Of a stretch of 64,000 nucleotides of DNA, positions 8,176 to 11,672 are shown one piece after another. The stretch is from assembly GCA_965213925.1 (NCBI GenBank), contig OZ243927.1:3488001-3552000 (forward strand), read 5' to 3'. Origin of the DNA: Trueperaceae bacterium (lineage in GTDB: Bacteria > Deinococcota > Deinococci > Deinococcales > Trueperaceae). The position numbers and the translations under genes are program-made. A model generated the notes under the pieces. That model was not told the origin of the DNA and ran no database searches. It saw only the letters and a program-made list of their open reading frames with translations. How positions within the stretch are numbered: position 1 is the stretch's first letter; each line of letters opens with the position of its first letter.

Positions 8176-9690
8176 ATGTCCGCCATCTACCAACGCGCCC
8201 GCCCCATCACCTTCGCCCAAGTCGTCGGTCAAGACCACGTCAAAAGCGTGCTCAAAGCGGCTCTTGAGCGCGGGCGCATCGGTCACGCCTACCTCTTTTC
8301 GGGACCGCGCGGCGTCGGCAAAACGACGACGGCGCGGCTCTTGGCGATGGCGGTCAACTGTGAGAATGAGGACGTTGCTCAGCGTCCTTGTGGCGAGTGC
8401 GAATCGTGCCTGTTGGTGCGCAGAGGTAATCATCCGGACGTGACCGAGTTGGACGCGGCGTCGAACAATTCGGTTGAAGATATTCGAGATTTAAGAGAAA
8501 AGGTGCGGCTCGCCTCGCTAAGAGGGGGCAAGCGCGTGTGGGTCTTGGATGAGGCGCACATGCTGAGCAAGTCGGCGTCGAACGCGCTTCTCAAGACGCT
8601 CGAGGAGCCCCCGCCCAACCTCGTCTTCATCCTAGCCACCACCGAGCCCGAAAAGCTGCCGCCGACGATTCTCTCGCGCACCCAGCACTTCCGCTTTCGC
8701 CGACTTTCTGAGGGTGAGATTGCAGGCAAGCTCGAGCGGTTATGCCAAGAGGCTGACGTTCCCGCTGAAAAGGACGCCCTCACCTTAGTCGCGAAAGCTG
8801 CCGACGGTGCGATGCGGGACGCGGAGTCGCTTTTAGAACGTCTTCTAACTTCGGGTGAAGCCATCACCCAAGAGGACGCCGAAGCCGCGTTGGGATTGCC
8901 GCCGCAGTCGAGGTTGCAAAATTTGGCGAAGCACCTCATCAACCGCGACTTGAACGCACTTTTTAGCGAAGCGAGCGGTCTCTACACGGACGGTTTTGCG
9001 CCCCGCAGCTTAGCCGAGCGCCTCAAGCTGACCTTGCGCGAAGCGCTTTACACGTCAGTCGGTTTGACGGATGACTTCCGCTTAGACGCCGACCAAGACA
9101 ACCTCTTGCGCGTCATCCACGCCCTCGACGACGAGGCGGAGCGCTTTGTCCGCTATGACGACCTCTTCTCATTGGAAGTCTCCCTCATCAAAGCGATGAA
9201 CGCGCTGTCACACAACGCGCCGAGCGACGCGGTGGCTGACCTCTCTGAGCGTCCACCCGCGCCGAGTCGGGACGGAGCCGCAGCGCAGCCGCCGCCTACA
9301 CGCCCTAGCCTCCCCGACTTCGACCCCGTCGGACGCACGCCGCCTCAACCTCTTTCGAACGGGATTTCGAACAGTGCGGCGGAACGGGCGAGGGAACGTG
9401 CACCTCAGAGAGATGAGCCTCGAGCCGAATCCGCACCACCTCCCCGAAAGGTCAACTGGCACAGCGTCCAGAGCAAAGCCAGCGCCCAACTCAAAGCCTT
9501 TCTGATGCCCGCTAAAACCGACATCGAGGGTCAGGATATCTACTTGCGCTTCGCCGACACGCACAAGTTTCACTTTTCCCAGCTCAAAAGCCGCCAGGGT
9601 GAACTCACCTCTCTGGTGGGCGACGTGTTGGGCGGCGGCTACACGCTGCACATCGAAGGACCAGGGGAGTCGCTTGTAAAAAAGTTGTAG
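8176..9690 (+). CDS. dnaX: DNA polymerase III clamp loader subunit, short (gamma-like) form, 504 aa
   Basis: GPRGVGKTT Walker A, Zn Cys motif, DEAHML, LLKTLEEPP and SRTQ. Confidence 0.97.
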   Translation: MSAIYQRARPITFAQVVGQDHVKSVLKAALERGRIGHAYLFSGPRGVGKTTTARLLAMAVNCENEDVAQRPCGECESCLLVRRGNHPDVTELDAASNNSVEDIRDLREKVRLASLRGGKRVWVLDEAHMLSKSASNALLKTLEEPPPNLVFILATTEPEKLPPTILSRTQHFRFRRLSEGEIAGKLERLCQEADVPAEKDALTLVAKAADGAMRDAESLLERLLTSGEAITQEDAEAALGLPPQSRLQNLAKHLINRDLNALFSEASGLYTDGFAPRSLAERLKLTLREALYTSVGLTDDFRLDADQDNLLRVIHALDDEAERFVRYDDLFSLEVSLIKAMNALSHNAPSDAVADLSERPPAPSRDGAAAQPPPTRPSLPDFDPVGRTPPQPLSNGISNSAAERARERAPQRDEPRAESAPPPRKVNWHSVQSKASAQLKAFLMPAKTDIEGQDIYLRFADTHKFHFSQLKSRQGELTSLVGDVLGGGYTLHIEGPGESLVKKL

Positions 9691-9717
9691 CGGAGCGTGC
9701 CGACGAGGGCGCTCCGC
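9663..9717 (+). promoter_or_regulatory. Programmed -1 ribosomal frameshift signal
   Basis: SD-like AGGGGAG at 9663-9669, in-phase slippery A AAA AAG at 9678-9684, and an 8-bp stem GCGGAGCG(9690-97)/CGCTCCGC(9710-17). Confidence 0.85.
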
Positions 9718-10442
9718 CCAAGTCAGTAGAATCCAAGCCAGTCGAACCCAGGCGAGCAGAACCCATCCGGGCTAAGCGTCAGCAGAGCGAGCCTCAACAG
9801 AACGGGGTTCAGCAACGCGGAGTTCAACAGAGTGCGGCGCAACAACCTGAACCTCGAGCCCCCTCTCAGCAGGTATCCAATCAATCAGAAGTTCAGCCCA
9901 CGGTGAATGAGGTTGAAGCCTCGAGTCCTCCAAAACCACAACCGGAACAACGCCGCGCACCCCCAGGGCGCACGCCCGACACGCCGCCGCCCCGCGTCAA
10001 TCCCGAAGAAACCGCACCCGAACCCAAAGCGACCCCTAGCTCAGGAGAGGAGCCCGTCCCCCCTGCTGAAGACGCGGAGCCCGAGCGCACCGCGTCTGAG
10101 AGTCTTTACGGTGAAGATTTACCGCCCGACTTTTGGGACAGTGACCCTATTGCCGACATTGATGTTAAAGCCGCTACGCAAAGCGAACCCAGACCGGATG
10201 AAGTTGACTTTGAGCCGAGCCGTTCTTCACCTCAACCTTCACGACCTAGAGCGCAACCTAGACAAGAGGTGGTGGGGAAGCTTACTGACGACCCCCGCTT
10301 TGAGGTCATGCAGTCGCTCTTTCCAGGTCAGATCGTCGAATGGCAAGACAGCGAAGAGGTTGCAGACGAAGAGATGAACGAAGAAAGCGCGGATGACCTC
10401 TCGAATGACCCTAACGAGGGCGCTGACGGGTTAGACTTATAG
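9678..10442 (+). CDS. dnaX: -1 frame extension of DnaX (tau-like C-terminus); fusion 8176..10442, ~755 aa
   Basis: The -1 frame is open from the A AAA AAG site (KKVVAERADEG...) into the 9903..10442 ORF, checked codon by codon. It ends in a DDPRFEVMQSLFPGQIV motif and an acidic tail. Confidence 0.82.
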   Translation, partial: KKVVAERADEGAPPKSVESKPVEPRRAEPIRAKRQQSEPQQNGVQQRGVQQSAAQQPEPRAPSQQVSNQSEVQPTVNEVEASSPPKPQPEQRRAPPGRTPDTPPPRVNPEETAPEPKATPSSGEEPVPPAEDAEPERTASESLYGEDLPPDFWDSDPIADIDVKAATQSEPRPDEVDFEPSRSSPQPSRPRAQPRQEVVGKLTDDPRFEVMQSLFPGQIVEWQDSEEVADEEMNEESADDLSNDPNEGADGLDL

Positions 10443-10591: not shown

Positions 10592-10903
10592 ATGAACATG
10601 CAAAAGCTGATGAAAGAGGCGCAAAAGGCGCAGAAGAAGATGGCGGAAGCGCAAGAGCGCTTGGCGAACATCTCCGTCGAGGGCAGTGCGGGCGGCGGTT
10701 TGGTCACGGCAACCGCGAGCGGCGACGGCAACATCACGGGCATCAAAATCGACCCGAGCACCGTTGACCCCGAAGACGTCGAGCTGTTAGAAGACCTCGT
10801 CGCGGCCGCCGTCAACGAAGCCCAGCGCAAAGCCAAAGAGGTCCAAGAGGCCGAGATGGGCTCCGCGATGGGCGGTATGGGCGGACTCGGGGGGATGTTT
10901 TAA
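10592..10903 (+). CDS. ybaB: YbaB/EbfC nucleoid-associated protein
   Basis: MQKLMKEAQ, GSAGGGLV and EDLVAAAVNEA motifs. dnaX-ybaB-recR synteny. Confidence 0.96.
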   Translation: MNMQKLMKEAQKAQKKMAEAQERLANISVEGSAGGGLVTATASGDGNITGIKIDPSTVDPEDVELLEDLVAAAVNEAQRKAKEVQEAEMGSAMGGMGGLGGMF

Positions 10904-11081: not shown

Positions 11082-11672
11082 TTGAAATATCCACCTGCTT
11101 TAATCCAACTCATTCGCGAACTCGGGCGGCTCCCCGGCGTCGGTCCTAAGAGCGCCCAGCGTCTTGCCTTTCACCTCTTTAACCAGCCCGAAGAGGATGT
11201 GAAGGGGCTCGCACAAGCCCTCTTAAACGCGAAGGGCTCACTTAAACAGTGCGAGGTCTGCTTTAACATCACCGACCAAGAGGTCTGCTCGATCTGCCAG
11301 GACGCGCAGCGCGAGCGCGGGCTCATCTGCGTGGTGGAGGAACCCGCCGACCTTTTAGCGATTGAGCGTAGCGGCGAGTACGGCGGGCTCTACCACGTCC
11401 TGCACGGCGCACTCTCGCCCATGAACGGCGTCGGACCCGACCAACTCACGATTCAACCTCTCTTAACGCGGCTCAATGATATCGACGAGGTCATCTTAGC
11501 GACTGCGACGACGGTTGAAGGCGAAGCAACGGCGATGTATTTAGGACGATTACTCAAGGAAATCGGCGTGGGAACGTCGCGTATCGGTTATGGGCTGCCC
11601 GTAGGCGGTGACTTGGAGTACGCCGACGAAGTTACGCTGGGACGCGCCATTACCAACCGCCGAATGTTGTAG
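11082..11672 (+). CDS. recR: Recombination mediator RecR
   Basis: LPGVGPKSAQRLA HhH, C4 zinc finger, toprim and EYADEVTL motifs. Confidence 0.97.
   Translation: MKYPPALIQLIRELGRLPGVGPKSAQRLAFHLFNQPEEDVKGLAQALLNAKGSLKQCEVCFNITDQEVCSICQDAQRERGLICVVEEPADLLAIERSGEYGGLYHVLHGALSPMNGVGPDQLTIQPLLTRLNDIDEVILATATTVEGEATAMYLGRLLKEIGVGTSRIGYGLPVGGDLEYADEVTLGRAITNRRML

Follow-up and report, generated by a model that had tools for sequence, protein, structure and literature searches.

In a stretch of 64,000 nucleotides from the genome of a Trueperaceae bacterium (hereafter the window; GenBank assembly GCA_965213925.1, contig OZ243927.1, positions 3,488,001 to 3,552,000 of the forward strand, numbered from its first letter), expression of the clamp-loader gene dnaX very likely involves a programmed -1 ribosomal frameshift of reversed polarity. 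Ribosomes holding the reading frame would stop at the TAG at position 9688 and release a gamma-like clamp-loader subunit of 504 amino acids. A fraction of the ribosomes would be stalled by a hairpin at positions 9690-9717, probably aided by the Shine-Dalgarno (SD)-like sequence AGGGGAG, and on these stalled ribosomes two tRNA-Lys would move back by one base on the slippery heptamer A_AAA_AAG. Translation of 252 more codons after the slip would then yield a tau-like protein of 755 amino acids, the added part of which is predicted to be a disordered linker with two short conserved motifs. This one-base backward slip of the ribosome is most likely the only source of the long tau form, in the window as well as in most Trueperaceae.

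The N-terminal open reading frame (ORF) encodes a bona fide DnaX, as judged from Pfam matches, and it ends at the stop codon adjoining the slippery site. Its product consists of the clamp-loader ATPase domains I-III followed by a linker and then the DnaX_C globular domain. The Pfam matches of the 0-frame product include DNA_pol3_delta2 (6.4e-48) and DNAX_ATPase_lid (1.8e-10), as well as DnaX_C, which scored 26.5 bits when residues 420-504 were scanned alone. An earlier note on this DNA, written from the sequence without database searches, had described an arrangement of AGGGGAG, 8 nucleotides and an in-phase A AAA AAG, and the same bases were found at 9663-9684, where the run of A's at the slip site comprises six. 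The TAG which the note placed two codons past the slip site is the second codon after the heptamer, at 9688-9690, and the GC-rich stem that it reported 5 nucleotides downstream is likewise present. This stem has 9 base pairs, formed by 9690-9698 with 9709-9717, and a 2-base-pair extension inside. When folded alone (9685-9722) the hairpin has a predicted energy of -20.5 kcal/mol (z = -2.98), and 2 of 200 shuffled sequences were equally stable. Coordinates of these and other features are collected in Table 1.

The arrangement in the window recurs across the family. A total of 128 Trueperaceae genomes were searched, 123 of which had a dnaX match, and 118 loci were read. The loci left unread are those of G110, which is an unpublished genome on which no claim depends, and of G052, G096, G128 and G135, in which the matches abut contig ends. 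Fourteen of the 118 loci are cut by contig ends and 104 are complete. Among the complete loci, 81 from 27 genera have the reversed layout, in which an in-phase slippery heptamer and a stop codon are followed by an open -1 frame, with a hairpin that covaries across the family. All five loci read from genus g43 are of this reversed type. Single long ORFs of at least 600 amino acids are found at 19 loci (genera g6, g9, g12, g13, g35 and g40), and the remaining four loci (L009, L062, L068 and L069) have some other layout. Recurrence of the reversed layout in 81 of 104 complete loci exceeds chance, and the direction of the shift is -1 in all 81 loci across the 27 genera. The heptamer is A_AAA_AAA at 43 of the reversed loci (at six of them within an A8 run), A_AAA_AAG at 32, C_CCA_AAA at five and G_GGA_AAA at one. 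Since heptamers of reversed loci were chosen by the rule that they stand in X_XXY_YYZ phase, this phase is not an independent result and serves as a contrast only. The stop lies exactly 3 nucleotides 3' of the heptamer at 74 of the 81 loci (TGA at 45, TAA at 15 and TAG at 14), and the six loci with non-homopolymeric heptamers keep the same stop and hairpin. Retention of heptamer, stop and hairpin among orthologues, which the earlier note had proposed as a check, is thus seen at 81 loci of the family.

A few loci depart from the common pattern in individual ways. At L006 (genome G019) the stop is replaced by TTA, and the 0 frame continues for 9 codons through the hairpin to a TAG, while heptamer and stem are kept. 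The signal is also present at L009, which ends 11 codons later. L062 (genome G060) has an in-frame TGA at dnaX codon 61, a position occupied by a cysteine codon of the zinc module (VNC/ENE) in the window and its relatives; this TGA may be a sequencing error, the mark of a pseudogene or a recoded codon.

The downstream hairpin has been maintained through considerable change in its primary sequence. Where the stop is at +3 (74 loci), 22 distinct 5' arms of 7 nucleotides occur, and in an ungapped test the downstream complement of the same locus matches the arm at 7/7 positions in 49 loci and at 6/7 in 18. In a cross-locus control, 7/7 complementarity was reached in 16% of 4656 pairings of arms with downstream sequences. 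The 48 nucleotides after the heptamer have a mean predicted folding energy of -21.5 kcal/mol, versus -14.9 kcal/mol for other segments of the same genes. RNAalifold recovered the stem from a set of 23 equal-length sequences, in which 4 of 7 pairs show compensatory double changes, and from a set of 14 equal-length sequences, with such changes in 5 of 8 pairs; it returned no structure for 66 hairpins with unequal loops, which MAFFT had left ungapped. By these comparisons the predicted stem-loop is conserved as a structure. Upstream of the heptamer, at a distance of 4-20 nucleotides, a duplex with the anti-SD sequence of -6 kcal/mol or lower is predicted for 81% of the 81 reversed loci and for 10.6% of 2804 control segments of the same genes, an enrichment that is suggestive only because the SD-like stretch also encodes conserved Gly-Pro-Gly-Glu codons.

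The -1 frame encodes what appears to be the C-terminal part of tau. As the earlier note had reported, this frame stays open for 252 codons with a linker and an acidic tail, and the peptides it quoted (VVAER, ADEGAPPK and DDPRFEVMQSLFPGQIV) were all found there, together with the acidic end. The extension is made up of a Pro/Gln/Glu-rich linker with two conserved short motifs ahead of its acidic end, and the predicted long product has 503 + 252 = 755 amino acids. At 10287-10337 the -1 frame of the window reads DDPRFEVMQSLFPGQIVEWQ. The corresponding pattern, LFPGx[IVLF][IVLT], is present in the -1 frame at 56 of the 81 reversed loci, in the 0 frame at none and in the +1 frame at one, and it stands in frame at 19 of the 21 other complete Trueperaceae loci. 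DnaX proteins encoded by single ORFs, both in the Trueperaceae and in sister families (including Thermus and Meiothermus), have a linker followed by a short conserved terminal tail, examples of which are LQQLFPGRVIEF, DDPRFKKLQGLFKARLRQVW and LVELFGGRLRRF. The -1 product is homologous to these in-frame tau tails, and the tail motif LQxLFPGxVV predicted from the -1 frame is the one that single-ORF relatives have at the end of tau. Based on the aligned sequences, LQxLFPGxVV represents a conserved predicted C terminus of tau across the whole order. A crystallised Taq tau-c construct (4iqj_M, 177 amino acids) covers the DnaX_C domain, the Pro-rich linker and the equivalent tail. This tail may act as a tether for the polymerase.

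The second conserved motif of the extension, YGEDLPPDFWDSDPIA, conforms to [LIV]P[PAG]x[FL]W, a pattern found in the -1 frame at 43 of the 81 reversed loci, in the 0 frame at none and in the +1 frame at one. It looks like a partner-binding linear motif, as predicted from its sequence. The core of this motif, LP[PA]xFW, is found at 6 of the 21 other Trueperaceae loci and at 0 of 16 outgroup loci. Pfam gave no match for the -1 extension or for its last 68 amino acids, and the tail had no match in the PDB at E <= 10. At locus L068 (genome G111) the run is A7, compared with A8 in its genus, which places the tail two frames away; this displacement is probably an assembly indel.

Alternatively, the downstream ORF could be translated on its own, either from a GTG at 9903 or through termination-reinitiation, with dnaX giving the 504-amino-acid form only. 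The list of ORFs does include one of 179 amino acids that begins with this GTG (9903..10442), and in public metagenome gene calls the extension appears as separate unnamed proteins of 162-208 amino acids, which bears out the expectation of the earlier note that ordinary gene callers would split the gene. No protein of at least 442 amino acids containing the extension was found in the protein database (weak evidence). Independent translation is nevertheless very unlikely given that the heptamer is followed by an open -1 frame at 81 of 81 loci, that ATG is entirely absent from 34 of the 81 -1 ORFs and that there is no conserved start codon beyond the stop. At 19 Trueperaceae loci and at 16 of 16 outgroup loci, DnaX carries this tail as an in-frame fusion, and a free tail would be unable to link the polymerase to the clamp loader. 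Retention of the signal and the location of the tail in the -1 frame lend support to the proposal, made in the earlier note, that gamma (504 amino acids) would be the default product and the tau-like form (~755 amino acids) the recoded one.

A single missing A would yield the same picture as a frameshift site, and the assembly, in 6 contigs, is of the metagenome type. That the reversed layout results from a one-base homopolymer assembly error, or from a decaying gene, is nonetheless extremely improbable, since the same frame break is found in 81 independently assembled genomes from 27 genera with differing heptamers, with a conserved stop and a covarying stem across the reversed loci, and since the -1 frame is under coding constraint. 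Between the window and a sister species there are 41, 32 and 83 differences at codon positions 1, 2 and 3 of the extension, and 37, 11 and 118 at the respective positions of the N-terminal part. Judged by codon position, the substitution pattern of the extension is that of a coding sequence which evolves faster than the N-terminal part. In addition, an independently assembled public contig from a related strain spans the slip site with 18 substitutions and no gap (two runs, one sample), and so argues against the 1-nucleotide assembly error which the earlier note had named as a possible refutation.

Another possibility is that the RNA polymerase inserts one A in the A run, after which standard translation would give the same 755-amino-acid protein. 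Because the ribosomal and polymerase routes yield identical proteins, protein data cannot separate them. Slippage by the polymerase has been proposed for two-ORF dnaX genes with A7-A10 runs (Antonov et al. 2013, PMC3711429). Thermaceae-type relatives have their A8-9 run at the position that corresponds to the slip site, and in both the reversed and single-ORF layouts Lys-Lys codons directly follow the last strand of DnaX_C. The states outside of the Trueperaceae rest on 16 loci that were read and on the rows listed in an order-wide census. All 16 outgroup loci are single ORFs, and among the rows listed in the census all open frames outside of family f1 are at least 686 amino acids long. Runs of A8-9 are present at the site in 4 of 4 loci of family f5, 4 of 4 of f4, 3 of 4 of f3 and 0 of 4 of f2. 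These runs in single-ORF relatives stand in phases 0, 1 and 2, and the hairpin after them is weak or absent, with a mean of -10.6 versus -21.5 kcal/mol at reversed loci.

For the window, a polymerase origin of the shift is unlikely. The window has just six A's, and a homopolymer of about eight or more A's, the criterion for a Thermus-type site, is absent from it and was recorded only in single-ORF relatives. Six reversed loci have only four A's (C_CCA_AAA or G_GGA_AAA), and since four A's in a row are too few for polymerase slippage, these loci favor the ribosomal route. The covarying hairpin is found at a fixed distance downstream of the heptamer and is missing from single-ORF relatives with A8-9. 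While the polymerase passes over the A run the hairpin has yet to be transcribed, and it can therefore act on the ribosome but not on the polymerase. The shift is very probably ribosomal.

Several observations weigh against a programmed ribosomal frameshift in dnaX, besides the coding overlap of the SD-like stretch. The run is A7 or A8 at 43 of the 81 reversed loci, and a contribution by the polymerase is possible there. A wider fold of 86 nucleotides around the hairpin is indistinguishable from shuffled sequences (z = -1.05), and at 7 of the 74 loci with the stop at +3 arm complementarity is 5/7 or less in the ungapped test. Rfam has a family for the dnaX frameshift element, and a cmscan search of 9550-9850 against Rfam at E <= 10 returned no frameshift element, the only match being a chance one to SNORD10. 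The strict tail pattern is missing from 25 of the 81 reversed loci, and at L103, L119 and L127 the tail or the LPPxFW motif lies in another frame farther downstream, probably as a result of extra assembly indels in low-complexity linkers. No contig of the identical strain across 9592-9751 was present among the contigs listed for the two runs of one sample. Finally, the genome encodes both tRNA-Lys(UUU) and tRNA-Lys(CUU), and in E. coli the CUU isoacceptor lowers slippage on AAG. With both isoacceptors present the shift may be only modestly efficient, yet tau, which connects the clamp loader to the polymerase, is normally essential.

The signals in the window resemble those of E. coli dnaX, which shares with it the heptamer A_AAA_AAG and a stem-loop 5-6 nucleotides downstream, along with a counterpart of the candidate upstream SD-like element and of the predicted pair of clamp-loader proteins with a common N terminus. 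The polarity is opposite, however, in that the shift makes the short gamma in E. coli and would make the long tau-like form in the window. The window genome also differs from E. coli in that tRNA-Lys(CUU) is present as well. In addition, the split point in the window follows a DnaX_C-type domain and so differs from domain V of E. coli tau; the C-terminal domains of Taq and E. coli tau share no homology (PMC4703070). The polymerase slips on an A9 run during transcription of dnaX in Thermus thermophilus (Larsen et al. 2000, cited in PMC3711429 and PMC5009743). Thermus belongs to the same phylum, and its site occupies the same position in the protein, directly after the last DnaX_C strand. Thermus differs from the window in having tau in the 0 frame, 8-9 A's in variable phase and no conserved downstream hairpin, whereas the window has tau out of frame, a short A run and a conserved hairpin.

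Reversed dnaX as a kind has already been described. Antonov et al. (2013; GeneTack, PMC3711429) reported 17 two-ORF dnaX genes from 12 genera, 12 of them with A7-A10 runs, and Atkins et al. (2016; PMC5009743) stated that in 'many fewer bacteria' tau arises from frameshifting and the stop for gamma is directly after the site, mentioning, as unpublished work, signals resembling those of E. coli in Chlorobium phaeobacteroides. As in the window, the short form of these published genes ends at a stop directly after the slippery site, tau needs a -1 shift and the two ORFs are not annotated as one gene. The set of Antonov et al. has mostly A7-A10, in contrast to A6G, A7, C_CCA_AAA or G_GGA_AAA in the Trueperaceae, for which a family-wide covarying hairpin and an SD-like element are documented. 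A literature search for Truepera and dnaX gave only a paper on a sequence discrepancy in Deinococcus radiodurans, the 12-genera list of PMC3711429 being outside of that search, and a search of the literature since 2013 on programmed frameshifting in two-ORF dnaX found nothing further on the reversed layout. The suspicion in the earlier note that the arrangement might already be known therefore holds for other phyla, while no paper mentioning it for relatives of Truepera was found. New here are the Trueperaceae lineage, represented by 81 loci from 27 genera, the stem covariation, the non-A heptamers and the link with the Thermus-type site.

How the reversed layout arose can be considered from a gene tree. 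A FastTree phylogeny of the N-terminal 375 amino acids (116 rows, without the cut loci and without L062, L068, L069 and L078) recovered the Trueperaceae as a clade (support 99) in which all deep branches are reversed. The single-ORF forms of the Trueperaceae fall into at least five or six separate nested positions, and the layout changed state at least 9 times on the tree, versus 31.9 times for shuffled labels. As the gene tree was rooted on the outgroup, the direction in which the layout changed follows from parsimony and is not proven. Two of the nested single-ORF loci, L013 (genome G014) and L100 (genome G121), stand among reversed relatives and have A9 and A8, respectively, at or near the site. 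Such runs are what one would expect if the frame had been restored by lengthening of the A run, which would again give a Thermus-type site.

The chances appear evenly balanced that the gamma/tau boundary is an ancient recoding hotspot of the Deinococcota that has switched both polarity and mechanism, with an ancestral A8-9 run in a single ORF, loss of one base in the Trueperaceae and at least five restorations of the single ORF. The ancestral state would have been a Thermus-type A8-9 run throughout the order, with gamma produced via polymerase slippage. Loss of a base in the ancestor of the Trueperaceae would then have made the essential tau reliant on ribosomal -1 frameshifting, newly reinforced by the hairpin and the stop, and non-A heptamers would have appeared later.

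Downstream of dnaX the window has the usual dnaX-ybaB-recR cluster (Table 1).

Table 1. Positions in the window of the dnaX recoding site, its predicted products and the neighboring genes (aa, amino acids; nt, nucleotides; bp, base pairs)
Feature	Position	Strand	Remarks
dnaX 0-frame ORF, gamma-like short product, 504 aa	8176..9690	+	ORF list and Pfam
SD-like AGGGGAG, candidate upstream stimulator	9663..9669	+	8-nt spacer (9670-9677) to the heptamer
Slippery heptamer A_AAA_AAG	9678..9684	+	Codons GTA AAA AAG TTG TAG, in X_XXY_YYZ phase
-1 frame extension, predicted tau-specific C-terminal part, 252 codons and stop	9684..10442	+	TAG at 10440-10442
0-frame stop TAG	9688..9690	+	One sense codon 3' of the heptamer; the stem begins with its G
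Stem-loop, 9 bp and 2-bp extension, candidate downstream stimulator	9690..9717	+	5 nt 3' of the heptamer
Conserved motif YGEDLPPDFWDSDPIA in the extension	10107..10154	+	Pattern [LIV]P[PAG]x[FL]W
Conserved tau tail motif DDPRFEVMQSLFPGQIV	10287..10337	+	Pattern LFPGx[IVLF][IVLT]; aligns with Thermaceae-type tails
ybaB/ebfC	10592..10903	+	PF02575, 6.4e-35
recR	11082..11672	+	RecR HhH, zinc-finger, Toprim and C-terminal domains

A further observation concerns a replication gene of the same genome outside of the window. DnaE (locus L247; G000:C1:3739730-3744853) has 1708 amino acids and is interrupted at about residues 865-1279 by an intein containing a LAGLIDADG homing endonuclease (Pfam Intein_splicing and LAGLIDADG_3). 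The DnaE open frames of the close relatives G002 and G005 are ~1270 amino acids long.

If a programmed -1 frameshift does operate in dnaX of the Trueperaceae, an essential subunit of the replisome would exist only via recoding in these bacteria, and the ratio of tau to gamma would be set by an RNA signal. Trueperaceae dnaX genes are likely annotated as a truncated gene and a hypothetical protein. The family offers 81 natural variants of one frameshift cassette, with four heptamers and many stems, along with single-ORF revertants, and this set should be useful for studies on frameshift efficiency. Were the gamma/tau boundary a recoding hotspot as described above, the Trueperaceae would in addition provide a natural series on how frameshift efficiency is set and tolerated for an essential replisome subunit, in a host with both tRNA-Lys isoacceptors.

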